In this document: piece after piece, positions 17,681 through 60,962 of the stretch | Position numbering within the stretch: the first letter of the stretch is position 1 | Layout of the letters: each line of letters begins with the position of its first letter | Origin: Candidatus Poribacteria bacterium | Lineage (GTDB): Bacteria > Poribacteria > WGA-4E > WGA-3G | Length of the DNA stretch: 64,000 bases | Direction: 5' to 3' | Assembly (NCBI GenBank): GCA_963663765.2 | Contig: CAXXUA010000006.1 | Span: 288,001 to 352,000 of the forward strand | The notes under the pieces: generated by a model | Databases searched by the model: none | Seen by the model: the letters and a program-made list of their open reading frames with translations, nothing else | Told to the model about the DNA's origin: nothing | Program-made: the position numbers and the translations under genes

Positions 17681-18703
17681 CATAAGCGTCAATTTAAGGA
17701 TTTTGACCTCTTGTGGGAGGGGTTTTCAACCCCGATTATAGTAAGACATATAATTATTTGGACAATTTGTAGCACAAACTCTATGATGATTAATTTATTA
17801 ATTCGGTAATAAATTTTTCTCACACGGTAGGTGTGCTTTGTAAGCGCGCTGTTGAGACTTGATGTGCCAGCGCGCTTACAAAGCACCAAATCAACGGTAT
17901 GAATGCCATTTAGGCATTCCCCGTCTACCATCGGGGCGCGCTTACAAAGCACGCCTGCAGTTGGGGGGCGCGCTTACAAAACACGCCTGCAGGGAAGTGC
18001 AGTTAGGGGGCGCGCTTACAAAGCACGGCTTGCAGTTGGGGGGCGCGCTTACAAAGCACCAAATCAACGGTATGAATGCCATTTAGGCATTCCCCGTCTA
18101 CCATCGGGGCGCGCTTACAAAGCACCAAATCAACGGTATGAATGCCATTTAGGCATTCCCCGTCTACCATCGGGGCGCGCTTAAAAAGCACGCCTGCAGT
18201 TGGGGGGCGCGCTTACAAAGCACGCCTGCAGGGGAGTGCAGTTGGGGGCCGCGCTTACAAAGCACGCCTGCAGTTGGGGGGCGCGCTTACAAAGCACACC
18301 TGCAGTTGAGGGGCGCGCTTACAAAGCACGCCTGCAGTTGGGGGGCGCGCTTACAAAGCACGCCTGCAGGGGAGTGCAGGTGGGGGGTGCGCTTACAAAG
18401 CACGCCTGCAGTTGGGGGCGCGCTTACAAAGCACGCCTGCAGTGGGGGTATGCCTGCAGGTGAGGGCGGGGATGGCGCGCTTAAAAAGCACGCCTGCAGT
18501 TGGGGGGCGCGCTTACAAAGCACGCCTGCAGTGGGGGTATGCCTGCAGGTGAGGGCGGGGATGGCGCGCTTACAAAGCACCAAATCAACGGTATGAATGC
18601 CATTTAGGCATTCCCCGCCTGCAGTTTGGGAGCAGGTGGGGGGCGCGCTTACAAAGCACGCTTACCGTTGGGTGCGTAAGTCCTGCTTAAATTGACACCT
18701 ATG
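17681..18703. mobile_element. M5 MITE expanded by a REP array, 20-bp target duplication
   Basis: CATAAGCGTCAATTTAAG ... CTTAAATTGACACCTATG; GAGTATT(T/C)TCCTAACCGCAC at 17661-17680 and 18704-18723; internal tandem GGCGCGCTTACAAAGCACGCC repeats. Confidence 0.8.
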
Positions 18704-44020: not shown

Positions 44021-45109
44021 ATGGCAAAACAGATAGCACTATTCAATCATAAAGGTGGAGTCGGTAAAACAACAACAACTTTTAATCTTGGTTGGATGCT
44101 GGCAGAAAAAGGGAAAAAGGTCATTATCGTTGACTGTGACCCGCAGTGCAATCTCACGGGAATGGTGCTTGGGTTTAAGGGTAGCGATGATTTTGCGTCA
44201 ATGTATGCATCCGATGGTGTAACCAATATCAGAGATGGATTGGCACCCGCTTTTGAATCACAACCTGTGAACATTGCACCTGTAAAATGTGTATCAATTG
44301 ATGAACAACCGAACATGCACCTCTTGCCGGGACACATCGGTCTGGCAGAATATGAAGTTACGTTGGGAATTGCTCAGGCACTAACAGGTTCACTGATAAC
44401 GCTTCAGAATTTACCGGGGTCCTTGAATTATCTATTTAACAAAACCGCAGAAAAGTATGATGCTGATTATATTTTGATAGATATGAGTCCGAGTTTGGGA
44501 CCGATCAATCAAAATTTATTGACGACAAGTGACTATTTTATTGTTCCGATGTTTCCAGATTACTTCTCAGCGATGGCGACAGAGAGTCTCGCTTCAATCT
44601 TACCCAAATGGTCAGCGTGGGCAGAAAACGCTAAGACATTGGACATACTCAAAGATGCGATATATCCTTTTCCAGGCAAACACCCTAAATTTCTTGGAAC
44701 GATAATTCAGAATTATAACATCAGGAAAGGAAAACCTGCTGCTGCTTTTAATCAATGGATTCATGAGATACAAAAAGGTGTCCAAACAAAACTTATGCCT
44801 GCGTTAGGTGATAGCAATATGCTCCTACCGGATGAAATCTATTATGAGGCGAGTATGATTGGATCTGATGTAAAGCAGATACCTCTTTTTTTTGACGGCA
44901 TTGCAAGCCAGCCGATTCTCCAATTACCTAATTTCAATACGCTTATTCCGCTTTCCCAAAAATATAACGTTCCGATATTTAATTTAACCGATGCACAGCT
45001 TGAAAAAGAAGGGAACGTCCTTGAAAATATGAAAAAATCTATGAAGAAGTTTCGTGTTTTATTTTCTGATGGGGCAGATCGGATAATAACTCTTACCGAC
45101 AATGCTTAA
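44021..45109 (+). CDS. ParA/Soj-family ATPase (orphan, HEPN-associated type)
   Basis: FNHKGGVGKTTT, VDCDPQCNLT, LIDMSPSLG; long C-terminal part; no ParB adjacent. Confidence 0.88.
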   Translation: MAKQIALFNHKGGVGKTTTTFNLGWMLAEKGKKVIIVDCDPQCNLTGMVLGFKGSDDFASMYASDGVTNIRDGLAPAFESQPVNIAPVKCVSIDEQPNMHLLPGHIGLAEYEVTLGIAQALTGSLITLQNLPGSLNYLFNKTAEKYDADYILIDMSPSLGPINQNLLTTSDYFIVPMFPDYFSAMATESLASILPKWSAWAENAKTLDILKDAIYPFPGKHPKFLGTIIQNYNIRKGKPAAAFNQWIHEIQKGVQTKLMPALGDSNMLLPDEIYYEASMIGSDVKQIPLFFDGIASQPILQLPNFNTLIPLSQKYNVPIFNLTDAQLEKEGNVLENMKKSMKKFRVLFSDGADRIITLTDNA

Positions 45110-45683
45110 TCCTATAGAACAATTTCGGGAGAATATAACACGAATACGTGATCTCGGTGGTGTGTATACAACTTTTAGTAATGTTACGACTGCTGTAGTT
45201 GATTTAACGGATTTGTTACGCGCACAAATCGTCATGATTGTGAGTGCACATGACCTTTATGTCCACGAGATCACAAGAGCGGGTATGTTGGAAATCTACA
45301 ATGGAAACCGACCACAAACGGATTCTTTTTTACGATTTCAGGTAACTTTAGGTACAGCAATAGATGGTATTGCCAACCCCACTGTAAGCGATTGGCTTGA
45401 TATAGAAATCCGAGAAAGACATAGTCACTTATCATTTCAGGTTTCGTCATGTGAGTTGTGGCCGTCTGTAGCGCGAGAACTTCACATTGATGTTCAAGAT
45501 GTAAAAAATCGGGTGCGTGCAATCGTCAAGCGCCGCAACCAAATTGTCCATGAGGCTGATTTAGATCCCACCTACCCAGGCACTATTATCAGAAGATCAA
45601 TCACTCCTGCAGACGTAACAAGCACAGTTGATTTTATCCAAGATGTTTGCGAAGCAATTGACACCATTTCCAGTCAAACCTAA
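45102..45683 (+). CDS. HEPN-domain protein (RiboL-PSP-HEPN-like), putative RNase
   Basis: LLRAQIVMIVSAHDLYVHE helix and Rx4H motif RRNQIVH; overlaps the ParA stop by 8 nt. Confidence 0.78.
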   Translation: MLNPIEQFRENITRIRDLGGVYTTFSNVTTAVVDLTDLLRAQIVMIVSAHDLYVHEITRAGMLEIYNGNRPQTDSFLRFQVTLGTAIDGIANPTVSDWLDIEIRERHSHLSFQVSSCELWPSVARELHIDVQDVKNRVRAIVKRRNQIVHEADLDPTYPGTIIRRSITPADVTSTVDFIQDVCEAIDTISSQT

Positions 45684-45780
45684 AATATTTTACACCGTTG
45701 ATTTGTAAATCTTGGTTCAGACAGAATTGCGGATAACACGGATTACGCGGATAAGACCTCTTGGTAGGAGCGTTTTCAAT

Positions 45781-46345
45781 CACAGTCGCGACCGGGAGGT
45801 CGCTCCTACCATTTCATTCACAGTCGCGACCGGGAGGTCGCTCCTACCAACACATTCACAGTCGCGACCGGGAGGTCGCTCCTACCATTTCATTCACAGT
45901 CGCGACCGGGAGGTCGCTCCTACCAACACATTCACAGTCGCGACCGGGAGGTCGCTCCTACCAACACATTCACAGTCGCGACCGAGAGGTCGCTCCTACC
46001 AATTCATTCACAGTCGCAACCGAGAGGTCGCTCCTACCAACACATTCACAGTCGCGACCGGGAGGTCGCTCCTACCAATTCATTCACAGTCGCGACCGGG
46101 AGGTCGCTCCTACCAACACATTCACAGTCGCGACCGGGAGGTCGCTCCTACCAACACATTCACAGTCGCGACCGGGAGGTCGCTCCTACCAACACATTCA
46201 CAGTCGCGACCGGGAGGTCGCTCCTACCAACACATTCACAGTCGCGACCGGGAGGTCGCTCCTACCAACACATTCACAGTCGCGACCGGGAGGTCGCTCC
46301 TACCAACACATTCACAGTCGCGACCGGGAGGTCGCTCCTACCAAC
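45781..46345. repeat. 38-bp tandem repeat, 15 units, each a REP (GTAGGAGCGACCTCCCGGTCGCGA on minus)
   Basis: Units start every 38 bp from 45781 to 46313; no unique spacers. Confidence 0.92.
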
Positions 46346-46548: not shown

Positions 46549-47244
46549 TTATCGTTTGTTTTTGATGCTTCCCCATGTGGTTGTGAGCTTGGCTTTTGGG
46601 TCTACGGGAAAACTGGAATCGCCGAAGTATTCGATTTCGCCAATTTGAAAGTATGCGCCAGTCGGGTGCAATGGGGTTTCAAAAGTAACAAACCGAAAAA
46701 AACGATATCCGGTTTTTGGCTCGTCGTAATCATCGCCTGCATCAAAACGGACGACTTGAAGTCGCTCATTCCAAAAACTATCGCCGTCGTGCGCAAAGAT
46801 GGTCGTAAAATTATCACCGTCGTTTGACCCCTGAATTTCCCATACTGAAGGGTCTCTCCCGGGATAATCGTTTGCTGAAGATACGGTGAAATGTGTCAAT
46901 AAGTATGCGTCTTCAAACTCAGCCGTCACGTGTAAACCGTCTTCTGGAACGCCGTTTGCAGGTCCGCAGCACCATTTGTCGTTGCTGGGACCAAGTCGGT
47001 TATCAAAGACGTTAAATGCGGATTCCCCGCCCCCGAATCCGGGTTCGTCGTTGGCTGTGAAAATGGCGTTGTATCCTTCATCTGTATCCGGTTGCCCGTC
47101 ATCTTCTGGGTCGGTGAGGTCGCCGCCGAGTAGTGATGCTGTCTGTGTGCCCAAGATTTCCTCTGCTTGTACTATGTCGTTGTTGTTGATAGCAAAACAG
47201 GCTATCAGCAACACAATTCCTGCGAATACCAAGATAGATTTCAT
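46549..47244 (-). CDS. Secreted discoidin/F5-8 type C-like protein with KWCC motif and conserved C-terminal tail
   Basis: Signal peptide; AFNVFD..KWCCGP, THFTVSSAND.P.RDP..WEIQGSNDG, YRFFRF, QIGEIEYFG; tail VDPKAKLTTTWGSIK. Confidence 0.8.
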   Translation of the reverse strand: MKSILVFAGIVLLIACFAINNNDIVQAEEILGTQTASLLGGDLTDPEDDGQPDTDEGYNAIFTANDEPGFGGGESAFNVFDNRLGPSNDKWCCGPANGVPEDGLHVTAEFEDAYLLTHFTVSSANDYPGRDPSVWEIQGSNDGDNFTTIFAHDGDSFWNERLQVVRFDAGDDYDEPKTGYRFFRFVTFETPLHPTGAYFQIGEIEYFGDSSFPVDPKAKLTTTWGSIKNKR

Positions 47245-47559: not shown

Positions 47560-48258
47560 TTATTTGTTGTTTTTGATGCTTCCCCATGTGGTTGTGAGCT
47601 TGGCTTTTGGGTCTACGGGTGTCGTTCCGACTTCGCCGAAGTATTCGATTTCGCCAAGTTGAAAGTATGCCCCAGTCTCGCCCGCTGCAGTGGTCAAAGT
47701 GACAAACCGAAAGAACTTGTATGCTTCGGTTTGAGCGTCGTAATCGTCGCCTGCATCAAAACGGATGACTTGCAGCCGCTCAGTCCACAAACTATCGCCT
47801 TCGTGAGCAAAGATGGTCGTGAAATCCTCGCCATCGTTTGACCCCTGAACTTCCCAGACTATCGGGTCTCTTGCGGGTGCATCGTTTGCTGAAGATACGG
47901 TGAAATGTGTCAAGATGTATGTCTGCTCAAGCTCAGCTGTGATGTGTAGTCCATCATCTGGAATGCCGCCATTAGGTCCGCAACACCATTTTGCATTGCC
48001 GCCGCCGAGTTGGTTATCAAAGACGTTAAATGCATTTTCTCCGCCACCGAATGAGGGTTCGTCGTTGGCTGTAAATATGGCGTTGTACCCTTCATCTGCA
48101 TCAGGCTGACCGTCGTCTTCTGGGTCGGTGAGGTCGCCACCGAGTAGTGATTCTGTGCCTGTGCCTAAGACTTCTGATGCCTGTGCTATGTCGTTGTTAC
48201 TGATAACAAAACAAACTGTCATTAACACAATTCCTGTTAATGCTAACATATTTTTCAT
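47560..48258 (-). CDS. Secreted discoidin/F5-8 type C-like protein, paralog 2 (KWCC)
   Basis: Same motifs and tail as 46549-47244. Confidence 0.8.
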   Translation of the reverse strand: MKNMLALTGIVLMTVCFVISNNDIAQASEVLGTGTESLLGGDLTDPEDDGQPDADEGYNAIFTANDEPSFGGGENAFNVFDNQLGGGNAKWCCGPNGGIPDDGLHITAELEQTYILTHFTVSSANDAPARDPIVWEVQGSNDGEDFTTIFAHEGDSLWTERLQVIRFDAGDDYDAQTEAYKFFRFVTLTTAAGETGAYFQLGEIEYFGEVGTTPVDPKAKLTTTWGSIKNNK

Positions 48259-48401: not shown

Positions 48402-48786
48402 TATCATTTTTTCTGAATCACTGAGGTCGTGATTCTGTCTGAACCAGGATTTTCAGATTAGCAGGATTAGAGTCTGAAGCAGTTGGGTTCCATTCCGAAA
48501 AATCACTTGCGATCAGCAAAAACACTTGTGTCTGTCTGAACCAGGATTTACAGGATTTTGAGTTTTTCAGGATTAGTGTCTGAAGCAGTTTGGTTCTATT
48601 CCGAAGATAGCTATAGGTTCCATTCCGAAGACAGCCTTGCGATCAGAAAAACTCTTGAAGCGGTAAATCCTGGTAATCTGGTAATCCTGTAAATCCTGGT
48701 TCAGACGAGAGGGCGCGCTTACAAAGCACCAAATCAAGAAATCAACGGTATGAATGCCATTTAGGCATTCCCCGCCTGCATTTGGG

Positions 48787-49464
48787 TTATCGTTTGTTTT
48801 TGATGCTTCCCCATGTAGTTGTAAGTTTGGATTTTGGGTCTACGGGAAAGCTTGTTTCGCCGAAGTATTCGATTTCGCCAAGTTGAAAGTTCTGTACGGT
48901 TTCAAAAGCAATAAACCGAAAAAACCGATATCCGGTTTTTGGCTCTTCGTAATCATCGCCTGCATCAAAACGGATGACTTGCAGCCGCTCAGTCCACAAA
49001 CTACCGCCGTCGTGAGAAAAGATGGTCGTGAAATCCTCGCCGTTGTTCGACCCCTGTATTTCCCAGACTGTTGGGTCCCTATTAGGAGTATCGTTCGCTG
49101 AAGATACGGTGAAATGTGTCAATGCGTATGCCTCTTCAAACTCAGCAGTTACGTGTATGCCTCCCGCCGGAAGGCTTTGAGGTCCTCAGCACCATTTTGC
49201 ATTACCGCCGCCGAGTTGGTTATCAAAGACGTTAAACGCATTTTCACCGCCGCCGAATCCGGGTTCCTCGCTAGATGTGAACGTGGCGTTGTATCCTTCA
49301 TCTGCGTCAGCAGCACCGTCGTCTTCTGGGTCGGTGAGGTCGCCGCCGAGCAGTGATGCTGTTTGTGTGCCTAAGACTTTTTCTGCATGTGCTATATCGC
49401 TCGTGTTGATAACAAAACAGGCTATCATCAACACAATTCCTGCGAATACCAAGATAGATTTCAT
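48787..49464 (-). CDS. Discoidin-like paralog 3 with in-frame TGA at a Cys position: candidate selenoprotein (225 aa, KWC-U-GP); alternatively a nonsense pseudogene
   Basis: ORFs 49186-49464 and 48787-49122 are in one frame; single TGA at 49186-49188 aligns to the second Cys of KWCC; downstream hairpin; rest of gene intact. Confidence 0.75.
49159..49175 (-). promoter_or_regulatory. Putative bacterial SECIS hairpin
   Basis: mRNA UGA-GGACCUCAAA-GCCUUCC-GGC-GGGAGGC: 7-bp stem, G-initiated loop starting 18 nt after UGA. Confidence 0.65.
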
Positions 49465-49950
49465 GATGTTTTATCTCCTAGATGTAATGAATCTCACTTT
49501 TACGTGAGTTTCATGTTAAGTTTTTGTGCAGTTTGATTGCACTGCACGTATTTATTTTTACTAACTTGTGTTCTACCATAACATATTTTAAATAAAAAGT
49601 CAATATCATTTTTTTCTGAATCGCTGAGGTCGCGAATCTGTCTGAACCAGGATTTTCAGGATTAGCGTCTGAAGCAGTTTGGTTTCCATTCCGAAGATAG
49701 CCTTGCGATCAGGAAAATTCCTTGTGTCTGTCTGATCTAGGATTTTCAGGATCTTGAGATTAGCAGGATTAGTGTCTGAAGGAGTTTGGTTCCATTCCGA
49801 AGATACACATAGGCGTCAACTTAAGGATTTTAACCTCTTGTGGGAGGGGTTTGCAACACCGATTTTATGTGCATTTCCGCTCAAATCGGTGTTGCAAACC
49901 CCTCCCACAAGAGAAAAAGAACCCTACATCAACAGAAAAGGACAAACGAT

Positions 49951-51840
49951 CTACTTAATCTCCCACAGCAGCAACTGCCCCTTCTCATCCCGGCTTGCCA
50001 ACGTCGTGCTGAACGCAGCGAATTCCAGTTGAACAATAGTGTCATTACCACCAGTAAACGTCTGCAGCACCGCACCTATCGTGGCATCCAAGATGTTAAT
50101 CATCCCTTGAGAATACCCCACCGCGAGTTTCTCCCCATCCGGATGATACGCAATGCAACTCACAATAAGCTTCGGTTGCCCAAAATGTGCTTTGACCCTA
50201 TATGTGCTGGTGTCCAACAGATGAATGTTGCCGCGTCGGTCAGCAATTGCGAGTGTGTTCCCATCCGGACTATAGGCAACACACCTTATGTCGTTTATCT
50301 GCGGTTTGATGTCAGGTTTTCTCTCGCCAGTGTTCGCATCCCAGAAACACACCTTCCTATCATAACTGACAGTCACAAGCGTCTTCTTATCCGGACTATA
50401 GGCGACATCACTAATACCATTTGAATGTTCTATAAGTGTCCGTTTCCTCAGATGTATGTTTGCATCCCACATCTGAACAGTCTTATTCTCGCAACCCATT
50501 ACCAGCGTGTTCCCATCCGGACTATAGGCGACACTTATAACACCATCACTATTCACCTCCAGTGTCTTTCCTCTTCTAATCTTGTTGCGATCCCACAGAC
50601 GGACTGTGCCGTCACGATTCGCAGTTGCTATCGTTCTGCCATCCGGACTGAACGCAACATCATAAACTAAGGTTTGTCGTCCGCTATTGTAAGTCTTTAG
50701 TAATTTGCCGGTCGCCGTATCCCAAAGACACATGTAGCTTACCCTACTCGGAGAGACGATGGACTTGCCATCCGGACTGAAAGCGAAACAGAAAAAACCG
50801 CCAAAATGTTCTTTTTCGGTGTGCCTGTTCTTACCGGTAGCAACGTCCCACACACGCAACGTGCCATCATGACTGCCACTCGCGATGGAACGCATATCGG
50901 GACTGAACGAAATCGCTCGAATTGGCTCGCGATGTCCTTTCAGAATTTGCTTCTGTTCGGCTGTGCTTGTCTGGTAAATTACAATTGAATTGAAGTTTTG
51001 ATCCGCAGCGAAGAGACTACCTTCTGGACTGAAAGCGATGCGGCTTGAACCTCCGAACTTACCAGCAATTGTATGTGTCTGTTTCCATGTCTCCGTGTTC
51101 CAGAGACTGACGGCACTAAACATACCCGAACCCGCCAAAGTTGTGCCATCCGGACTGAACACCAGAGACATAATAAACCCCGCATCTGTTTCAAGTGTGT
51201 GCTTGTGTTCGCCAGAAAGTAGGTCCCACAACTTCACTTGTTTGTGATAAGGTCCAGTCGCAAGCAACATATCTACGGTACTGATCGCATAAGTATGCAC
51301 ACCTTCATGCAGTTCTTTAATCTTACCAATTTCCTGCAGTTTTTTACCGGTATCAAGCGACCAATGTCTGATGTATCCAGCCTTGTCTACTGTCACAAGC
51401 AATTTCGCATCGGGTGTGATACCGACGACTTGGATATTGTCTTTGTCGTCAACAAGATCTTGAAGTTCATATTGAAGGTCTCCTGTTTTGCTGTTCCATA
51501 GATTGACATTACCCCTCATGTCCAGAGCGACAAGCCGTTCACCATCCGGACTGAACACGAGTTGGTCAACAGAGGTACGGGTATTCGTCAGCAAGTGCTG
51601 CGGTTGGAATGTGACCGCGTCGTATAGCCAAATGCCGTTAGATGTTGCCACCGCCAGCTGCCTGCCGTCAACACTGTATTTGACATCGTATATAAGTCCT
51701 TTACCGAGTCGTGCTCTTGCACCATCGGGTAAGCCGAAAAAGGTGTGCGGTTCTTGCGCAAAAACTTCGGGCAGGTAGAGTGTTGAAAAGCTCAAGATGA
51801 GTATGTATATTGTGATGTGTATTCGGTTTTTGGTTTGCAT
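49951..51840 (-). CDS. Secreted WD40-repeat protein, tandem copy 1
   Basis: MQTKNRIH signal peptide, LPDGARARLGKG, WD40 repeats; AGGAGG RBS. Confidence 0.88.
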   Translation of the reverse strand: MQTKNRIHITIYILILSFSTLYLPEVFAQEPHTFFGLPDGARARLGKGLIYDVKYSVDGRQLAVATSNGIWLYDAVTFQPQHLLTNTRTSVDQLVFSPDGERLVALDMRGNVNLWNSKTGDLQYELQDLVDDKDNIQVVGITPDAKLLVTVDKAGYIRHWSLDTGKKLQEIGKIKELHEGVHTYAISTVDMLLATGPYHKQVKLWDLLSGEHKHTLETDAGFIMSLVFSPDGTTLAGSGMFSAVSLWNTETWKQTHTIAGKFGGSSRIAFSPEGSLFAADQNFNSIVIYQTSTAEQKQILKGHREPIRAISFSPDMRSIASGSHDGTLRVWDVATGKNRHTEKEHFGGFFCFAFSPDGKSIVSPSRVSYMCLWDTATGKLLKTYNSGRQTLVYDVAFSPDGRTIATANRDGTVRLWDRNKIRRGKTLEVNSDGVISVAYSPDGNTLVMGCENKTVQMWDANIHLRKRTLIEHSNGISDVAYSPDKKTLVTVSYDRKVCFWDANTGERKPDIKPQINDIRCVAYSPDGNTLAIADRRGNIHLLDTSTYRVKAHFGQPKLIVSCIAYHPDGEKLAVGYSQGMINILDATIGAVLQTFTGGNDTIVQLEFAAFSTTLASRDEKGQLLLWEIK

Positions 51841-52139
51841 GTGTGTGTGCCTCCTGTGCGTTTTCTCAAGGTCGTTATATTTATTATACTCAACCTGCAG
51901 GATCATGACAAGGGGTTGTCTGAATTGCGTCCTCCGCGCTTTTGTCTGAATCAGGATTTTCAGGATTATCGGATTTCCAGGATGTCCCTTGTCAATGTTT
52001 TTTGATGTGCGTTTATGCTTACTTTTGAAATAGAATTTGATGAGAATAATCCTGGTAATCTGTCCATCCTAATTCAGACAATAAACAAGAATATCACAAG
52101 AGAAAAAGAACCCTACATGAACAGAAAAGGACAAACTAT

Positions 52140-54122
52140 TTACTCAATTTCCCACAGCAGCAACTGCCCCTGCCTATCCAGGCTTGCCAACGTCGTGCTG
52201 AACGCAGCGAATTCCAGTTGAAAAACTGAGGTGTCACCACCAGTAAACGTCTGCAGCACTGCACCTGTCGTGGCATCTAAGATGTTAATTTTCCCTTGAG
52301 AATACCCCACCGCGAGTTTCTCTCCATCCGGATGATACGCAATGCTACTCACAATAAGCTGCGGTTGCACAAAATGTGCTTTGACCATAGAGGTGCTGGT
52401 GTCCAACAGGTGAATGGTGCCGCGTTGGTCAACAATTGCGAGTGTGTTCCCATCCGGACTATAGGCAACACACATTATGTCCTTTATCTGCGGTTTGATG
52501 TCAGGTTTTCTCTCGCCAGTGTCCACATCCCAAGAACGTATCTTCCCATCATAACCGACAGTTGTAATCGTCTTGCTATTTGGACTATAGACGGCATCCT
52601 TAATACCATCATTGTCTGCCTTAAAACCATCTTTGTGTTCTCTCAGTGTCCGTTTCTTCTCTTGTATGTTTGCATCCCACACCTGAACAGTCATATCCCC
52701 GCAACCCATCGCAACCGTGTTCCCATCTGGACTATAGTCAATACACATAACACCCTTCCTATTCACCTCCAGCATTTTTCCCCTTCTAATCTTGTTGCGA
52801 TCCAACAAACGGATTGTGCCGTTCCGACTCGTCTTTGTTATCGTTCTACCATCCGGACTGAACGCAACATCAGAAACTAAGGTTTGTCGTCCTTTATTGT
52901 AAGTTTTTAGTAATTTGCCGGTCGCCGTATCCCAAAGACACATGTAGCTATCATCACTCGGAGTGACGATGAACTTGCCATCCGGACTGAGAGCGAAATA
53001 GGAAAAACCGCCAAAATGCTCTTTTTCAATATGCCTATTTTTGCCGGTAGCAATGTCCCACACACGCAACGTGCCATCACGACTGCCACTCGCCATAGAA
53101 CGCATATCGGGACTGAAAAATATTGCTTGAATGGTATCGCTATGCCCTTTCAGAATTTGCTTCTGTGCGGCTGTGCTTGTCTGATAGATTACAATTGAAT
53201 TGAAGTTTTGATCAACAGCGAACAGGCTACTTTCTGGACTGAAAGCGATGCTGCCTGAGCCACCGAACTTTCCAGCGATTGTGTGTGTCTTTTTCCACGA
53301 TTCCGTGTTCCAGAGACTGACACCACCGAAAATACCCGAACTCGCTAACGTTGTACCATCTGGACTGAACACCAACCGATCAGCAGACCACAATTCACCT
53401 ATCTCAAGCTTGTGCTTGTGTTCCCCAGAAACGAGATCCCATAACACCACTTTGTTAGCATTGTTAATAAAAGGAGTTCCAAACGCGAACAACAGATTTA
53501 CCGGACTGACGGCATAACTTCTCACACCCCGGTTCAGTTCTTTAGTCTTATCAATCTCGTGCAGTATTTTACCGGTATCAAGCGACCAATGTCTGATGTA
53601 TCCAATCCTATCTACTGTCACAAGCAATTTCGCGTCAGGCGTGATGCCGATGACTTGGACATCATTTTTGTGTAAAAGATGTTTGTGTATATGTTGATCT
53701 CGTTCTACAAGTTGGTCTTCGGCTACAAGTAGGTCTTCGGCTACAAGTTCATATTGATGCTCGCCTGTTCTGCTGTTCCACAGATTGACATTACCCCTCA
53801 TGTCCAGACCGGCAAGCCTTTCACCATCCGGACTGAACACGAGCTGGTCAACAGAGGCACGGGTATTCGTCAGTAAGTGATGCGGTTGGAAGTTGACCGC
53901 ATCGTATAGCCAAATGCCGTTAGATGTTGCCACCGCCAGCTGCCTACCATCAACACTGTATTTGACATCGTATATGATGCCTTTTCCGAGTCGTGCTCTT
54001 GCACCATCGGGTAAGCCGAAAAAGGGTTTCGGTTCTTGCGAAAAAACTTCGTGCCGGTAGAGTGTTGAAAGGGTCAAGATGAGTATGTATATTGTGATGT
54101 GTATTCGGTTTTTGGTCTGCAT
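52140..54122 (-). CDS. Secreted WD40-repeat protein, tandem copy 2
   Basis: Paralog of copy 1; start set at MQTK. Confidence 0.88.
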   Translation of the reverse strand: MQTKNRIHITIYILILTLSTLYRHEVFSQEPKPFFGLPDGARARLGKGIIYDVKYSVDGRQLAVATSNGIWLYDAVNFQPHHLLTNTRASVDQLVFSPDGERLAGLDMRGNVNLWNSRTGEHQYELVAEDLLVAEDQLVERDQHIHKHLLHKNDVQVIGITPDAKLLVTVDRIGYIRHWSLDTGKILHEIDKTKELNRGVRSYAVSPVNLLFAFGTPFINNANKVVLWDLVSGEHKHKLEIGELWSADRLVFSPDGTTLASSGIFGGVSLWNTESWKKTHTIAGKFGGSGSIAFSPESSLFAVDQNFNSIVIYQTSTAAQKQILKGHSDTIQAIFFSPDMRSMASGSRDGTLRVWDIATGKNRHIEKEHFGGFSYFALSPDGKFIVTPSDDSYMCLWDTATGKLLKTYNKGRQTLVSDVAFSPDGRTITKTSRNGTIRLLDRNKIRRGKMLEVNRKGVMCIDYSPDGNTVAMGCGDMTVQVWDANIQEKKRTLREHKDGFKADNDGIKDAVYSPNSKTITTVGYDGKIRSWDVDTGERKPDIKPQIKDIMCVAYSPDGNTLAIVDQRGTIHLLDTSTSMVKAHFVQPQLIVSSIAYHPDGEKLAVGYSQGKINILDATTGAVLQTFTGGDTSVFQLEFAAFSTTLASLDRQGQLLLWEIE

Positions 54123-54489
54123 GTGTGTGTGCCTCCTGTGCGTTTTCTCAAGGTTAATATATTTATTATACTCAACCTGCAGGAACATGGCAAGAGGATG
54201 TCTGAATTGCGTCCTCTGTGCTTTTGTCTGAACCGGGATTTTCAGGATTATCGGATTTCCAGGATGTCCCTTGTCAATGTTTTTTGATGTGCGTTTATGC
54301 TTACTTTTGAAATAGAATTTGATGAGAAAAATCCTGGTAATCTGCAAATCCCGGGGAATGCCATTGGGCGAATGCGCGTGTGGCATTCGCCATGATTCAT
54401 ACCGTTGATATGTGAATCCTGGTTCAGACAAAAAACAAGAATATCACAAGAGAAAAAGAACCCTACATCAACAGAAAAGGACAAACGAT

Positions 54490-56418
54490 CTACTCAATCT
54501 CCCACAGCAGCAACTGCCCCTGCTCATCCAGGCTTGCCAACGTCGTGCCGAACGCAGCGAATTCCAGTTGAACAATATAGTCGCCACCACCAGTAAACGT
54601 CTGCAGCACTGCACCTGTCGTGGCATCCAAGATGTTAATCATCCCTTGAAAATACCCCACCGCGAGTTTCTCCCCATCCGGATGATACGCAAGACAACTC
54701 ACAAAAAGCTGCGGTTGCCCAAAATGTGTGTCGACCATAGAGGTGCTGGTGTCTAACAGGTGAATGTTGCCGTGTCGATCAGCAATTGCGAGTGTGTTCC
54801 CATCCGGACTATAGGTAACACACCTTATGTCCTTTATCTGCGGTTTGATGTCAGGTTTTCTCTCACCAGTGTCCACATCCCAAGAACGCACCTTCCTATC
54901 ATAACCAACAGTTACAATCGTCTTGCTATTTGGACTATAGACGGCATCCTTAATACCATCATTGTCTGCCTTAATACCATCTTTGTGTTCCCTCAGTGTC
55001 CGTTTCTTCTCTTGTATGTTTGCATCCCACACCTGAACAGTATAATCCCCGCAACCCATCACAACCGTGTTCCCATCTGGACTATAGGCAATACACATAA
55101 CACCCTTCCTATTCACCTGCAGTGTCTTTCCCCTTCTGATTTTATTGCGATCCCACAAACGGACTGTGCCTTCATGACTCGCCGTTGCTATCGTTCTGCC
55201 ATCCGGACTGAACGCAACATCAGAAACCCCGTCTTGCCGTCCACTATTGTAAGTTTTTAGTAATTTGCTGGTCGCCGTATCCCAAAGACACATGTAGCTA
55301 TCACTACTCGGAGAGACGATGAACTTGCCATCCGGACTGAAAGCGAAACAGGAAAAATCGCCAAAATGTTCTTTTTCGGTGTGCCTGTTCTTACCGGTAG
55401 CAATGTCCCACACACGCAACGTACCATCAAAACTGCCACTCGCGATGGAACGCATATCGGGACTGAACGAAATCGCTTGAATTGGCTCGCGATGTCCTTT
55501 CAGAATTTGCTTCTGTTCAACTGGACGTATCTGATAGATACTAATTGTATTGAAGAGAAGATTCACAGCGAGCAGGCTACCTTCCGGACTGAAAGCGATG
55601 TCACTTGATTTTCCGAACGTGTGTATCTTTTCCCACGATTCCGTGTTCCAGAGACTGACACTACTAATAAACATCCCCGAATACGCTAACGTTGCACCAT
55701 CCGGACTGAACACCAATTGCACAGGCCACTTATTATCTACTTCAAGCATGTGCATGCGTTCCCCAGAAACCAGATCCCATAACTCCACTTTGTTGTCATT
55801 GCTTTTATTCATTCCAGTCGCAAGCAACATCTCTACTGGACTGATGGCATATCTTTTCACACGACGGCTCAGTTCTTTCGTCTTATCAATCTCGTGCAGT
55901 TTTTTACCGGTATCAAGCGACCAATGTCTGATGTATCCAGCCTTGTCTACTGTCACAAGCAATTTCGCATCAGACGTGATACCGACGACTTGGATATTGT
56001 CTTTGTCATCAATAAAATCTTGCATTTCATCTTTGTCTACAAGTTCATATTGATGCTCGCCTGTTCTGCTGTTCCATAGATTGACATTACCCCTCGTGTC
56101 CAGACTGACAAGCCGTTTACCATCCGGACTGAACACGAGTTGGTCAACAGTCGCACGGGTATTCGTCAGCAAGTGCTGCGGTTGGAATGTGACCGCATCG
56201 TATAGCCAAATGCCGTTAGTTGTTGCGACCGCCAGCTGCCTGCCGTCAACACTGTATTTGACATCGTTTATGATGCCTTTCCCGAGTCGTGCTCTTGCAC
56301 CATCAGGTAAGCCGAAAAAGGTGTGCGGTTCTTGCGCAAAAACATCGGGCAGGTAGAGTGTTGAAAGGGTTAAGATGAGTATGTATATTGTGATGTGTAT
56401 TCGGTTTTTTGTCTGCAT
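54490..56418 (-). CDS. Secreted WD40-repeat protein, tandem copy 3
   Basis: Paralog; start set at MQTK. Confidence 0.88.
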   Translation of the reverse strand: MQTKNRIHITIYILILTLSTLYLPDVFAQEPHTFFGLPDGARARLGKGIINDVKYSVDGRQLAVATTNGIWLYDAVTFQPQHLLTNTRATVDQLVFSPDGKRLVSLDTRGNVNLWNSRTGEHQYELVDKDEMQDFIDDKDNIQVVGITSDAKLLVTVDKAGYIRHWSLDTGKKLHEIDKTKELSRRVKRYAISPVEMLLATGMNKSNDNKVELWDLVSGERMHMLEVDNKWPVQLVFSPDGATLAYSGMFISSVSLWNTESWEKIHTFGKSSDIAFSPEGSLLAVNLLFNTISIYQIRPVEQKQILKGHREPIQAISFSPDMRSIASGSFDGTLRVWDIATGKNRHTEKEHFGDFSCFAFSPDGKFIVSPSSDSYMCLWDTATSKLLKTYNSGRQDGVSDVAFSPDGRTIATASHEGTVRLWDRNKIRRGKTLQVNRKGVMCIAYSPDGNTVVMGCGDYTVQVWDANIQEKKRTLREHKDGIKADNDGIKDAVYSPNSKTIVTVGYDRKVRSWDVDTGERKPDIKPQIKDIRCVTYSPDGNTLAIADRHGNIHLLDTSTSMVDTHFGQPQLFVSCLAYHPDGEKLAVGYFQGMINILDATTGAVLQTFTGGGDYIVQLEFAAFGTTLASLDEQGQLLLWEIE

Positions 56419-56505
56419 GTGTTTGTGCCTCTTGTGCGTTTTCTCAAGGTCAATATATTTATTATACTCAACCTGCAGGATCATGGCAAGGGGTTGTCTG
56501 AATTG

Positions 56506-56627
56506 CAGGGTTATTCAGTTTTAACCATTTTTTACATTTTTGTGAGAAAATCGCGACCGGGAGGTCGCTCCTACCGCGGGGTTTCTTTTTTGAAAAATCC
56601 AAAAATTAGGAAGACTGAATAACCCTG
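56506..56627. mobile_element. Short-form M1 MITE (122 bp), 9-bp TSD, carrying one REP
   Basis: CAGGGTTATTCAGT / ACTGAATAACCCTG; TSD TCTGAATTG at 56497-56505 and 56628-56636; empty sites near 51919, 54201 and 61042. Confidence 0.9.
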
Positions 56628-56746
56628 TCTGAATTGCGTCCTCCGCGCTTTTGTCTGAACCAGGATTTGTAAATCCTGGTTCAGACAATAAACAAGAATA
56701 TCACAAGAGAAAAAGAACCCTACATCAACAGAAAAGGACAAACGAT

Positions 56747-58684
56747 CTACTCAATCTCCCACAGCAGCAACTGCCCCTGCCCATCCAGGCTTGCCAACGT
56801 CGTGCCGAACGAAGCGAATTCCATTTGAATAATTGAGGTGCCACCACCAGTAAACGTCTGCAGCACCGCACCTGTCGTGGAATCTAAGATGTTAATCATC
56901 CCTTGAGAATACCCCACCGTGAGCTTCTCCCCATCCGGATGATACGCAAGGCTACTCACAGAAAGCTGCGGTTGCACAAAATGTGTGTCGACCATAGAGG
57001 TGCTGGTGTTCAACAGATGAATGGTGCCGCGTTGGTCAGCAATTGCAAGTGTGTTCCCATCCGGACTATAGGCAACACACCTTATGTCATTTATCTGCGT
57101 TTTAATGGAGGGTTTTCTCTCGCCAGTGTCCACATCCCAAAGACGTATCGTCGCACTAGCAGCAACAACCGCAAGCGTGTTCCCATTCGGATTATAGACG
57201 ACCTCCTTAATTCTATTTACATGTCCTCTAAATGTCCGTTTCTTCACTTGTATGTTTGCATCCCACACCTGAACAGTATCATCCCCGCAACCCATCGCAA
57301 CCGTGTTCCCATCTGGACTATAGGCAATACACATAACACCCTTCCTATTCACCTCCAGCATCTTTCCCCTTCTAATCTTGTTGCGATCCAACAAACGGAT
57401 TGTGCCGTTCCGACTCGTTGTTGTTATCGTTCTGCCATCCGGACTGAACGCAACATCAGAAACTAAGGTTTGTCGTCCTATATTGTAAGTTTTTAGTAAT
57501 TTGCCGGTCGCCGTATCCCAAAGACACATGTAGCTATCACTACTCGGAGAGACGATGAACTTGCCATCCGGACTGAAAGCGAAACAAGAAAAATCGCCAA
57601 AATGTTCTTTTTCGGTGTGCTTGTTCTTACCGGTAGCAATGTCCCACACACGCAACGTTCCATCACGACTGCCACTCGCGATGGAACGCATATCGGGACT
57701 GAACGAAATCGCTTGAATTCGCTCGCGATGTCCTTTCAGCATTTGCTTCTGTTCAACTGGATGTATCTGATAGATACTAATTGTATTGAAGAGAAACCCG
57801 ACGGCGAGCAGGCTACCCTCTGGACTGAAAGCGATGTCACTTGAATTGCCGATATTCGCACCGAACGTGTGTATCTTTTCCCACGATTCTGTGTTCCAGA
57901 GACTGACACCATCAAAGAGTCCAGAACTCGCAAACGTTGTACCATCTGGACTGAACACCAGCCGATCAGGTGACCATTCATCTACTTCAAGCGTGTGCAT
58001 GCGTTCCCCAGAAAGCAGATCCCACAACTCCACTGTGTTTTCATTGTTTTTATGAATACCAACCGCAAGCAACATATCCATCGGACTGATGGCATAACCT
58101 CTGTGACGACGGCTCAGTTCTTTAATCTTACCAATCTCGTGCAGTTTTTTACCGGTATCAAGCGACCAATGTTTGATGTAACCAGCACTGTCTCCTGTCA
58201 CAAGCGATTTCGCATCTTGCGTGATACCGACGACTTGGACATTGTCTTTGACTACAAGATGTTCGTGTATATGTTGATCCCCGTCTACAAGCCGAACTCG
58301 GTCTACAAGTTTATATTGATGCTCACCCGTTTTGCTGTTCCATAGATTGACATTACCCCTCTTGTCTAGACCGGCAAGCCGTTCACCATCCGGACTGAAC
58401 ACGAGTTGGTCAACAGAGGCACGGGAATTCGTCAGTAAGTGCTGCGGTTGGAATGTGACCGCATCGTATAGCCAAATGCCGTTAGATGTTGCCACCGCCA
58501 GCTGCCTGCCGTCAATACTGTATTTGACGTCGTATATAAGTCCTTTACCGAGTCGTGCTCTTGCACCATCAGGTAAGCCGAAAAAGGTGTGCGGTTCTTG
58601 CGCAAAGACTTCGGGCAGGTAGAGTGTTGAAAGGATCAAGATGAGTATGTATATTGTGATGTGTATTCGGTTTTTTGTCTGCAT
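56747..58684 (-). CDS. Secreted WD40-repeat protein, tandem copy 4
   Basis: Paralog; start set at MQTK. Confidence 0.88.
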   Translation of the reverse strand: MQTKNRIHITIYILILILSTLYLPEVFAQEPHTFFGLPDGARARLGKGLIYDVKYSIDGRQLAVATSNGIWLYDAVTFQPQHLLTNSRASVDQLVFSPDGERLAGLDKRGNVNLWNSKTGEHQYKLVDRVRLVDGDQHIHEHLVVKDNVQVVGITQDAKSLVTGDSAGYIKHWSLDTGKKLHEIGKIKELSRRHRGYAISPMDMLLAVGIHKNNENTVELWDLLSGERMHTLEVDEWSPDRLVFSPDGTTFASSGLFDGVSLWNTESWEKIHTFGANIGNSSDIAFSPEGSLLAVGFLFNTISIYQIHPVEQKQMLKGHRERIQAISFSPDMRSIASGSRDGTLRVWDIATGKNKHTEKEHFGDFSCFAFSPDGKFIVSPSSDSYMCLWDTATGKLLKTYNIGRQTLVSDVAFSPDGRTITTTSRNGTIRLLDRNKIRRGKMLEVNRKGVMCIAYSPDGNTVAMGCGDDTVQVWDANIQVKKRTFRGHVNRIKEVVYNPNGNTLAVVAASATIRLWDVDTGERKPSIKTQINDIRCVAYSPDGNTLAIADQRGTIHLLNTSTSMVDTHFVQPQLSVSSLAYHPDGEKLTVGYSQGMINILDSTTGAVLQTFTGGGTSIIQMEFASFGTTLASLDGQGQLLLWEIE

Positions 58685-58771
58685 GTGTGTGTGCCTCCTG
58701 TGCGTTTTCTCAAGGTTAATATATTTTTTATACTCAACCTGCAGGATCATGACAAGGGGTTGTCTGAATTG

Positions 58772-58893
58772 CAGGGTTATTCAGTTTTAACCATTTTTTA
58801 CATTTTTGTGAGAAAATCGCGACCGGGAGGTCGCTCCTACCGCGGGGTTTCTTTTTTGAAAAATCCAAAAATTAGGAAGACTGAATAACCCTG
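58772..58893. mobile_element. Short-form M1 MITE, same sequence and site as 56506-56627
   Basis: Same TIRs and TCTGAATTG duplication. Confidence 0.9.
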
Positions 58894-59012
58894 TCTGAAT
58901 TGCGTCCTCCGCGCTTTTGTCTGAACCATGATTTGAAAATCCTGGTTCAGACAATAAACAAGAATATCACAAGAGAAAAAGAACCCTACATCAACAGAAA
59001 AGGACAAACGAT

Positions 59013-60962
59013 CTACTCAATCTCCCACAGCAGCAACTGCCCCTGCCTATCCAGGCTTGCCAACGTCGTGCCGAACGCAGCGAATTCCAGTTGAAAAACT
59101 GAGGTGCCACCACCATTAAACGTCTGCAGCACTGCACCTGTCGTGGCATCCAAGATGTGAATCTTCTCTTGAGAATACCCCACCGCGAGTTTCTCCCCAT
59201 CCGGATGATACGCAAGGCTATTCACAGAAAGCTGCGGTTGTCCAAAATGTGTTTTGACCTTATAGGTGCTGGTGTCCAACAGATGAATGGTGCCGCGTTG
59301 GTCAGCAATTGCGAGTGTGTTCCCATCCGGACTATAGGCAACACACCTTATGTCATTTATCTGCGGTTTGATGTCAGGTTTTCTCTCGTCGGTTTCCGCA
59401 TCCCAGAAACGCACCTTCCTATCATAACTGACAGTCACAAGCGTCTTCTTGTCCGGACTATAGGCGACATCCCTAATACTATTATTCTGTCCCCTAATAC
59501 TCTCTTTATATTCCATAAGTGTCCGTTTCCTCTGGTGTGTGTCCGCATCCCACATCTGAACAGTATTATCCCCGCAACCCATTACCAACGTGTTCCCATC
59601 CGGACTATAGGTGACACTCCAAACCCCACCCATATCCACCAGCAGCGTCTTTCCCCTTCTGATTTTGTTGCGATCCAACAAACGGACTGTGCCGTTCCGA
59701 CTTGCAGTTACTATCGTTCTACCATCCGGACTGAACGCAACATCATCAACCCAGTCTTGTCGTTCACTATTGTAAGTTCTTAGTAATTTACCGGTCGCCG
59801 TATCCCAAAGACACATGTAGCTTTCCCTACTCGGAGAGACGATGGACTTACTATCCGGACTGAAAGCGAAACAGGAAAAACCGCCAAAATGTTCTTTTTC
59901 GGTGTGCCTGTTCTTACCGGCAGCAACGTCCCACACACGCAACGTGCCATCACGACTGCCACTGGCAATGGAACGCATATCCGGACTGAACGAAATCGCT
60001 TGAATTGGCTCTCGATGTCCTTTCAGAATTTGCTTCTGTTCGGCTGTGCTTGTCTGGTAAATTACAATTGAATTGAAGTTTTGATCCACAGCGAAGAGAC
60101 TACCTTCTGGACTGAAAGCGATGCGGATTGAACCACCGAACTTACCAGCAATTGTATGTGTCTGTTTCCATCTCTCCGTGTTCCAGATACTGACACCACT
60201 AAACATACCCAAATACGCCAACGTTGTGCCATCCGGACTGAACACCAGCCAATCAAGTGACCATTCATTTATTTCAAGCGTGTGCAAACGTTCCCCAGAA
60301 AGTAGGTCCCACAACTTCACTTGATTGTTATAAGGTCCAGTCGCAAGCAACATATCTACGGGACTGATCGCATAAGTATGCACACCTTCATGCAGTTCTT
60401 TAATCTTACCAATCTCATGTTGTTTTTTACCGGTATCAAGCGACCAATGTTTGATGTGTCCAGCATTGTCTACTGTCACAAGCAATTTCGCATTAGACGT
60501 GATACCGACGACTTGGATATTGTCTTCGACTACAAGATGTTCGTGTATATGTTGATCCCCGTCTACAAGCCGAACTCGGTCTACAAGTTTATATTGATGC
60601 TCACCCGTTTTGCTGTTCCATAGATTGACATTACCCCTCTTGTCTAGACCGGCAAGCCGTTCACCATCCGGACTGAACACGAGTTGGTCAACAGAGGCAC
60701 GGGAATTCGTCAGTAAGTGCTGCGGTTGGAATGTGACCGCATCGTATAGCCAAATGCCGTTAGATGTTGCCACCGCCAGCTGCCTGCCGTCAATACTGTA
60801 TTTGACGTCGTATATAAGTCCTTTACCGAGTCGTGCTCTTGCACCATCAGGTAAGCCGAAAAAGGTGTGTGGTTCTTGCGCAAAAACATCGGGCAGGTAG
60901 AGTGTTGAAAGGGTCAAGATGAGTATGTATATTGTGATGTGCATTCGGTTTTTGGTCTGCAT
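59013..60962 (-). CDS. Secreted WD40-repeat protein, tandem copy 5
   Basis: Paralog; 649 aa. Confidence 0.88.
   Translation of the reverse strand: MQTKNRMHITIYILILTLSTLYLPDVFAQEPHTFFGLPDGARARLGKGLIYDVKYSIDGRQLAVATSNGIWLYDAVTFQPQHLLTNSRASVDQLVFSPDGERLAGLDKRGNVNLWNSKTGEHQYKLVDRVRLVDGDQHIHEHLVVEDNIQVVGITSNAKLLVTVDNAGHIKHWSLDTGKKQHEIGKIKELHEGVHTYAISPVDMLLATGPYNNQVKLWDLLSGERLHTLEINEWSLDWLVFSPDGTTLAYLGMFSGVSIWNTERWKQTHTIAGKFGGSIRIAFSPEGSLFAVDQNFNSIVIYQTSTAEQKQILKGHREPIQAISFSPDMRSIASGSRDGTLRVWDVAAGKNRHTEKEHFGGFSCFAFSPDSKSIVSPSRESYMCLWDTATGKLLRTYNSERQDWVDDVAFSPDGRTIVTASRNGTVRLLDRNKIRRGKTLLVDMGGVWSVTYSPDGNTLVMGCGDNTVQMWDADTHQRKRTLMEYKESIRGQNNSIRDVAYSPDKKTLVTVSYDRKVRFWDAETDERKPDIKPQINDIRCVAYSPDGNTLAIADQRGTIHLLDTSTYKVKTHFGQPQLSVNSLAYHPDGEKLAVGYSQEKIHILDATTGAVLQTFNGGGTSVFQLEFAAFGTTLASLDRQGQLLLWEIE

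Follow-up and report, generated by a model that had tools for sequence, protein, structure and literature searches.

Is the UGA that interrupts a small gene of Candidatus Poribacteria a stop codon, or is it read as selenocysteine (Sec)? The question is raised by the gene at 48787-49464 (minus strand) of a 64,000-nucleotide stretch of contig CAXXUA010000006.1 (assembly GCA_963663765.2, positions 288,001 to 352,000), hereafter the window. Gene callers split this gene into open reading frames (ORFs) of 92 and 111 amino acids. The initial annotation had taken the fragments as one frame broken by a single TGA at 49186-49188, lying exactly on a Cys of the adjacent paralogs and followed directly by a hairpin, and had described the signal peptide, C-terminal tail and ribosome-binding site as intact; each of these features was recovered. 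On the minus strand, a single frame of 225 codons runs from an ATG (49464-49462) to a TAA (48789-48787), and its sole internal stop is the TGA at codon 93 (49188-49186), in the context ...GGGNAKWC-TGA-GPQSLPAGGIHVTAEF.... Reading of the sequence showed an AGGAG at 49479-49475, a hydrophobic signal-like N-terminal segment terminating in AHA and the tail PVDPKSKLTTTWGSIKNKR, all intact. The tandem paralogs at 46549-47244 and 47560-48258, respectively 78% and 73% identical to the full-length read-through protein, read KWCCGPANGVPEDGLHVTAE and KWCCGPNGGIPDDGLHITAE at this site, and the TGA aligns with the second Cys of their invariant KWCCG. These three genes are the only family members in the genome (G000; 6.35 Mb, 97.8% complete). 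A UGA aligned to Cys in homologs, together with a hairpin directly 3' of it, is the standard signature of bacterial Sec insertion by SelB. We consider it very probable that the gene encodes a real selenoprotein, in which UGA codon 93 would be decoded as Sec via SelB and the hairpin, placing a Cys-Sec pair on an exported-looking CBM32-like module.

Searched in six frames, 97 of 112 genomes belonging to the same family contained the protein, with 201 matches in all, 150 of them listed. Among the matches listed, 25 copies contained exactly one TGA, and all of them belonged to 22 genomes of the window's genus. Alignment of 45 distinct genes (the 25 TGA copies and 20 Cys copies present on the same fetched loci) placed every TGA in a single column, where the other genes had TGC (19/45) or TGT (1/45). 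All TGA copies ran on to the normal TAA uninterrupted by another stop or a frameshift, and those outside the window were 77-84% identical to the window copy. TGA is also used as a normal stop in G000, where it terminates 457 of the 2438 ORFs of at least 300 codons; all 45 compared family genes terminate in TAA. Two genomes, G038 (a single contig) and G013, yielded no family member other than the Sec form. Selection past the TGA was purifying rather than relaxed: Nei-Gojobori ratios of nonsynonymous to synonymous substitution (dN/dS) for the TGA copies were 0.25 downstream of the codon (300 pairs) versus 0.34 upstream (299 pairs), with a dS of about 0.5, and the Cys copies gave 0.28 and 0.30, respectively.

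Among the matches listed for the sister genus (65 genomes), Cys forms only were found. A phylum-wide search of 176 genomes identified homologs in 99, and no TGA occurred outside the genus among the matches listed, beyond which there were 40 more. A copy from G073 with a single TAG was set aside: the triplet is the fifth codon of an over-extended ORF and no true nonsense codon. The gene for selA was found in 106 of the 112 family genomes, including 63 of the 65 genomes of the sister genus; a loss of the machinery elsewhere thus does not explain why the Sec form is confined to one genus. Public records naming homologs give Candidatus Poribacteria, and sequencing runs containing the window stretch are labelled sponge metagenome wherever an organism is stated.

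The window's genome encodes a complete set of Sec genes. We found tRNA-Sec (selC; 78.5 bits, called SeC with anticodon tca by ARAGORN), selB directly upstream of this tRNA (361.6 bits), selA (620.8 bits) and selD (367.6 bits), all exceeding curated cut-offs. The selD gene is itself Sec-containing, with an in-frame TGA in KCAG-U-ASKL. Ten of the 24 AhpC-TSA (peroxiredoxin-like, Prx-like) matches in this genome also had one in-frame TGA. Several of these genes occurred as tandem pairs, and they were distributed over contigs C5, C6, C8 and C15 (for example C6:87407-88231 and C5:472289-473413). In view of these ten matches, Sec use in this genome looks extensive and its selenoprotein gene set looks large for a Poribacteria genome.

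The hairpin begins 10 nt after the UGA and has a 7-bp stem closed by a GGC loop at nt 20-22. The bSECISearch model for bacterial selenocysteine insertion sequence (SECIS) elements describes a stem-loop just 3' of the UGA whose apical loop contains a G and is some 16-37 nt distant, and the window hairpin agrees with this description. A GC-rich hairpin of 6-8 bp with a GGN or AGA triloop was present 10-12 nt past the UGA in all 25 TGA copies, which fell into two subtypes. The shorter one (13 copies including the window's) has a one-codon-shorter loop, GP..LPAGGIHV, and the hairpin (G)CCUUCC-GGN-GGRAGG(C) 10-11 nt after the UGA, with an AGA loop in G037; the residues by which it departs from the paralogs, SLPAGG, are exactly those encoding the stem. 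The longer one (12 copies, G[PR]GGGIPEEGLHV) has GGCAUUCC-GGN-GGAAGGCC 12 nt after the UGA, with the loop at nt 23-25. Third-position differences between the longer subtype and the Cys copies close or strengthen the stem (GGC versus GGT); GAG or GCG is found where Cys copies mostly have GAA, GAT or AAA, and the G also occurs in 4 of 20 Cys copies.

The folding energy of the 19-nt element separated the two forms completely, ranging from -6.7 to -11.0 kcal/mol in 25/25 Sec copies and from -1.0 to -4.0 kcal/mol in 20/20 Cys copies. Stem pairing held in 84.8% of cells across the copies, versus 31-67% with the partner slid. As a control, we looked at the 457 ordinary TGA stops of the genome: a perfect hairpin of -8 kcal/mol or less at a comparable distance was found after 3 of them, the candidate scoring -9.5 kcal/mol on the same measure. 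Of the nine Prx-like Sec genes of the genome that were folded, five showed a 6-7 bp stem with a triloop (AGU, GGC, GUU or GGA) at nt 24-26, counting from the UGA's U, and the loop of the selD hairpin was at nt 19-23. The data support a hairpin that is specific to TGA-bearing copies and resembles the other Sec-insertion hairpins of the genome. Together with the conserved TGA/Cys column, recoding of this TGA as Sec is strongly supported by computation. Each check named in the initial annotation that could have overturned its reading came out in favour of it.

The initial annotation had proposed an F5/8 type C-like domain, and this assignment was borne out by both sequence and structure comparisons. 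Residues 63-167 of the read-through protein matched PF00754 with 33.1 bits (cut-off 28.2); the paralog at 47560-48258 scored just above the cut-off (28.4) and that at 46549-47244 below it (26.5). An AlphaFold model built from 47 sequences gave a beta-sandwich with a predicted template modelling score (pTM) of 0.67. Residues 101-200 mostly had predicted local distance difference test (pLDDT) values of 74-92, with one 10-residue block at 67, and residues 1-40 were helical with low confidence. The best Foldseek matches were CBM32 modules and the CBM-like domains of a GH92 mannosidase (E values of 8.8e-10 to 1e-7, TM-score of about 0.7 normalised to the module). A sequence search of the PDB returned 7nsn only, over residues 106-168, and is silent on the Cys-Sec region. 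The predicted fold of the protein is a galactose-binding-like beta-sandwich of the CBM32/discoidin type.

Cys92 and Sec93 would be the only Cys or Sec side chains of the window protein, so that the vicinal pair has no other partner within the chain. The WCCG motif was kept in 118 of 120 full-length Cys homologs, 92 of which had exactly two Cys after residue 30. The family also has a conserved acidic N-terminal segment, LGGDLTDPEDDG. Tails of the VDPKxKLTTTWGxIK type were found by regular expression on 55 ORF ends in the six-frame translation of the genome. The pattern was (V/P)(E/D)P-x-x-K-(L/A/V)-(T/A/S)-T-(T/S)-W-G-x-(I/L/V)-K followed by 0-8 residues, and mostly ORFs of 200-310 residues carried it; none besides the window gene was split by a TGA. 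Some Cys homologs are named PEP-CTERM proteins by NCBI. We rejected this reading for the window protein: on inspection its tail VDPKSKLTTTWGSIKNKR is without a hydrophobic helix, and no NCBIfam model matched. The exosortase PF09721 was not found in the 97.8% complete genome. Given the 55 ORF ends and the lack of an exosortase, the window protein belongs to a large class sharing an uncharacterised C-terminal tag, which looks like a lineage-specific sorting or anchoring signal.

We then weighed the selenoprotein against other explanations of the TGA. An assembly or sequencing error has a negligible probability, and nothing was found in its favour. The read evidence consists of assembled contigs: those of two DNA runs from two studies spanned 48974-49234 with 0 differences, and contigs from RNA libraries of two further studies bridged the TGA, one over 127 nt with 4 differences and one over 520 nt with 20 differences, neither being altered at 49186-49188 or in 49159-49175. 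In addition, 24 further TGA copies exist in other genomes. The window sequence is real and is represented in RNA libraries. An ordinary nonsense mutation from TGC to TGA would need one base change, and the adjoining Cys paralogs could make the window copy dispensable; a decaying pseudogene beside two working paralogs is nevertheless very improbable. At a dS of about 0.5, 25 copies from 22 species retain this TGA, these copies are free of further stops and frameshifts, dN/dS past the TGA is 0.25, the hairpin is specific to TGA copies, and two genomes have the TGA form as the sole copy found. A pseudogene cannot produce this pattern, and the ortholog identities of 77-84% exclude a single contaminating sequence as its source.

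A conserved UGA with another meaning is also improbable, to a lesser degree. The codon could be a true stop releasing a 92-residue secreted peptide, the downstream part being separate or untranslated, or it could be read through by a near-cognate Trp, Cys or Arg tRNA independently of SelB. The ORFs of 92 and 111 amino acids predicted by gene callers, the small size of the hairpin and the fact that selenium in the product is deduced from sequence would fit such a reading. Against it, the discoidin domain (63-167) and the modelled beta-sandwich straddle the break, and the TTG start of the 111-aa ORF lies 21 codons past the UGA, and conservation across these intervening codons matches that of the remainder. 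Alignment of the UGA with Cys is the signature of Sec, and the genome is equipped with a full Sec system and has numerous further Sec genes with a hairpin of this type. A small minority of copies has the stop at the neighbouring Cys codon (KW-TGA-TGC), which fits Sec/Cys exchange and not fixed termination.

Several observations weigh against the selenoprotein with a working Cys-Sec site. Sec insertion and translation past the UGA rest on sequence evidence, and the RNA-library contigs do not prove transcription, as DNA can occur in such libraries. The hairpin is short with a 3-nt loop, and the wider region of 51-71 nt following the UGA folded no better than shuffles (z of -0.12 and +0.27); only the local hairpin is informative. 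Stem covariation was weak, with two pairs changed on both sides, a result matched by 64 of 500 shuffles. The independent Sec/Cys contrasts on well-supported branches numbered four, all in the expected direction (sign test, p = 0.125). An Rfam scan of 48600-49600 (E up to 1) gave no match in a collection that may or may not contain a bacterial SECIS family. No selA was found in the Sec-bearing genome G013 (95% complete, about 300 contigs). The model was mediocre around the pair, with pLDDT values of 39 (residues 81-90) and 64 (residues 91-100), so that it does not place Cys-Sec with respect to the binding face. The neighbourhood, made of five WD40 paralogs, a Laminin_G_3 protein and a ParA-like and HEPN pair, had no metal or redox pointer.

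To follow the history of the Sec/Cys exchange, 67 genes (25 Sec, 42 Cys) were placed on a tree after removal of the SECIS columns. Three copies that belong to two other families in the order served as the root, and the trees include part of the roughly 200 family matches. The Sec label changed 11 times on the best 67-gene tree, at least five changes being forced by well-supported branches, and 8 times on a smaller 45-gene tree, at least four being forced. All rows from outside the genus were Cys. By parsimony the Cys-Cys form is therefore likely to be ancestral, the Sec form having arisen from it within one Poribacteria genus. Same-genome copies often clustered (G000, G032 and G043), and gene conversion between tandem copies may therefore inflate the switch count. 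With Sec and Cys copies side by side and at least five switches within one genus, the family is a compact natural case of Sec/Cys exchange, in which the SECIS element would have grown out of I-P-E-E-G codons.

Sec can apparently sit at either position of the pair (Cys-Sec, CU, or Sec-Cys, UC). Five database clusters ended one residue earlier than the others, in ...SNAKW, and a copy from G012 (L069, G012:C170, minus strand, about 1314-1520) read KW-TGA-TGC-GPGGGIPEEGLHV with the same hairpin. This UC copy is frameshifted: it has one extra G after GSNDG, about 50 codons downstream, and the shifted frame is open to the normal C-terminus, which suggests an assembly error or a very recent change.

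How would such a protein be made and what could it do? Recruitment of SelB by a hairpin downstream of a UGA is the standard bacterial mechanism. The ribosome would decode UGA codon 93 as Sec, and SelB with Sec-tRNA(Sec) would be recruited by the small GC-rich hairpin, which lies within the coding sequence and starts 10 nt past the codon. The product would be a protein of about 20 kDa combining a signal-like N-terminus, a CBM32/discoidin beta-sandwich and the lineage-specific C-terminal tag, and it would coexist with Cys-Cys paralogs such as the two tandem copies in the window. The protein looks exported, judging from its N-terminus. In the reading that we favour, the protein would be a binding module at the surface or outside the cell, with the Cys-Sec pair as its working site and the sandwich as the binding scaffold. 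Because the protein is exported-looking and has neither a second thiol nor a reductant partner, chelation of a soft metal or metalloid by the pair seems somewhat more likely, by analogy, than a redox-active or covalent vicinal selenenylsulfide.

Sponges accumulate soft metals and metalloids such as Hg, Cu, Cd and As. A more elaborate scenario, which we regard as speculative and rather unlikely as a whole, is a lectin-type module on the Poribacteria surface or in the sponge matrix, with an exposed Cys-Sec on its binding face acting as a warhead. The pair would either capture these elements or bind, through reversible Se-S bonds, glycoproteins of the host or of prey that are recognised by the sandwich, making the protein a covalent lectin. 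If this were true, the tandem Cys-Cys paralogs would be selenium-independent back-ups, and Sec/Cys switching with the occasional UC shift would be a tuning to the local selenium supply.

Table. Coordinates of the candidate selenoprotein gene, its elements and its tandem paralogs in the window
Feature	Position	Strand	Remarks
Candidate selenoprotein gene	48787..49464	-	225 codons including one probable Sec codon; stop TAA 48787-48789
UGA codon 93, probably read as Sec	49186..49188	-	Aligns with second Cys of KWCCG in paralogs
SECIS-like hairpin GCCUUCC-GGC-GGGAGGC	49159..49175	-	10 nt 3' of UGA; apical loop nt 20-22 from U of UGA
Signal-peptide-like N-terminus, residues 1-27, MKSILVFAGIVLMIACFVINTSDIAHA	49384..49464	-	By reading the translation
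F5/8 type C (discoidin/CBM32-like) domain, residues 63-167	48964..49278	-	Pfam; Sec codon inside
C-terminal tail PVDPKSKLTTTWGSIKNKR	48790..48846	-	Intact; tag on 55 ORF ends of the genome
Tag-bearing tails	48790-48846, 47563-47620, 46552-46610	-	Sec gene and two paralogs
Shine-Dalgarno-like AGGAG	49475..49479	-	10 nt ahead of ATG; by reading
Promoter-like site TTGACT-17-TATGGT	49575..49603	-	9/12, with TG; consensus match only
Cys paralog	47560..48258	-	232 aa, KWCCG; tandem
Cys paralog	46549..47244	-	231 aa, KWCCG; tandem

Other features of the window were recorded around the gene. A 30-nt palindromic element, GGTATGAATGCCATTTAGGCATTCCCCGCC, occurred in 10 copies, all on the plus strand (48747-48776 and nine other sites, at 17896, 18069, 18135, 18590, 28074, 28196, 35453, 39581 and 42069), with 0 expected by chance; it is a repeat similar to repetitive extragenic palindromic (REP) sequences or miniature inverted-repeat transposable elements (MITEs). 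The segment 48713-48787, with the copy just past the stop of the Sec gene, had about 10 to 1000 times the depth of the gene in DNA contigs, with many loose ends. A tandem array without spacers at 45780-46345 repeats a 38-bp unit 14.9 times (96% matches); the unit includes the palindrome GCGACCGGGAGGTCGC, and the array generates long spurious ORFs. Five tandem ORFs of about 650-760 residues occupied 49951-60962 on the minus strand; the three that were scanned were WD40 beta-propellers and a fourth looked alike by reading. On the plus strand at 44021-45683, a ParA/MinD-like ATPase gene (AAA_31) overlapped the start of a RiboL-PSP HEPN-domain gene, the two possibly forming a module of the defence or toxin-antitoxin type.

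New families of bacterial selenoproteins turn up regularly, and we asked whether this one had been described. A database search with the 92-residue N-terminal fragment returned 99 short clusters; 63 ended exactly in KWC, 57 of them being 92 residues long, and all named clusters among these KWC-ending fragments were called "hypothetical protein". A full-length search returned Cys forms only, the best outside the window's genome being 72% identical. Compared with the 77-84% of the Sec orthologs found in genomes, this indicates that Sec forms are not deposited full length in that collection. No model of NCBIfam release 20 matched the protein with E up to 1, including those of known CU-motif selenoprotein families. 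Table 1 of a 2026 review (PMC13188914), which inventories 119 prokaryotic selenoprotein families, had no PF00754, discoidin or CBM entry. The main texts of deep-Sep (PMC12013277) and BSepDB (PMC13326102), whose supplements could list more families, contained no mention of discoidin, Poribacteria, galactose or PEP-CTERM, and the main text of deep-Sep named no discoidin-type family among its nine new families. Within the portion of the literature covered by our searches, nothing relevant was found on selenoproteins or selenocysteine in Poribacteria or sponge symbionts (one Poribacteria match concerned NiFeSe hydrogenases) or on selenoproteins with a discoidin or carbohydrate-binding module. As far as these sources extend, the initial annotation was right in not recognising the protein among the described families. 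The family does not seem to have been described, and it would be a new one among bacterial selenoproteins, unusual in its fold and likely location.

To our knowledge, almost every known selenoprotein is a redox enzyme or handles metals, and most have thioredoxin-like folds. An exported-looking carbohydrate-binding-type module with Sec would, if true, be a new setting for selenium, and it raises the question of the role of a selenol on a lectin scaffold outside the cell. The truncation of at least 63 database clusters at KWC also exposes a systematic annotation error.

The closest parallels are the selenoproteins with adjoining Cys and Sec. Table 1 of PMC13188914 lists seven CU-motif families, namely SaoL (MerB-like), SaoC, SaoB, HgcA, MbdU, the Csac_0668-type 2Fe-2S protein and KCU-star, most of which are metal-linked by name (all except KCU-star). 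Haft and Gwadz argued in their preprint (10.1101/2022.07.06.499078) that CU sites bind a mercury-like metal. As far as these two sources describe them, CU/UC selenoproteins share several features with the window family: Sec adjoins Cys, homologs are Cys-Cys, database entries are truncated at the Cys, a hairpin is present past the UGA and the frame resumes there, and several are extracytoplasmic or metal-handling. Unlike them, the window family has a CBM32/discoidin fold and no metal-handling genes nearby, and NCBIfam models gave no sequence relationship between the two. Poribacteria are aerobic sponge symbionts, in contrast to the anaerobes that carry the known CU/UC selenoproteins.

Animal thioredoxin reductase has a C-terminal Gly-Cys-Sec-Gly redox centre in which an eight-membered selenenylsulfide ring is possible, and like the window protein it has a vicinal Cys-Sec followed by Gly. 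In thioredoxin reductase the Sec is penultimate in a flavoenzyme and is reduced by an internal dithiol, whereas the pair of the window protein is internal, in an exported-looking chain with no other Cys and no flavin domain. The fold is shared with CBM32/discoidin modules, such as CBM32-5 of the Clostridium perfringens GH89 enzyme (PDB 4a44) and the CBM-like domains of the GH92 mannosidase 7nsn. The window protein differs from these modules in being a small stand-alone protein and not part of a glycosidase, and in its invariant WCC/WCU and its acidic segment. No CBM32 selenoprotein was found in the literature covered by our search or in the PMC13188914 inventory. The exported or outer-membrane selenoproteins in that inventory are the TonB-dependent receptor of the FCYXU type, the MtrB/PioB-like GSU2204 family, the SaoB and SaoX binding proteins, and DsbA-/DsbG-like proteins; these have Sec outside the cytoplasm, as the window protein would, on unrelated folds and with unrelated motifs.

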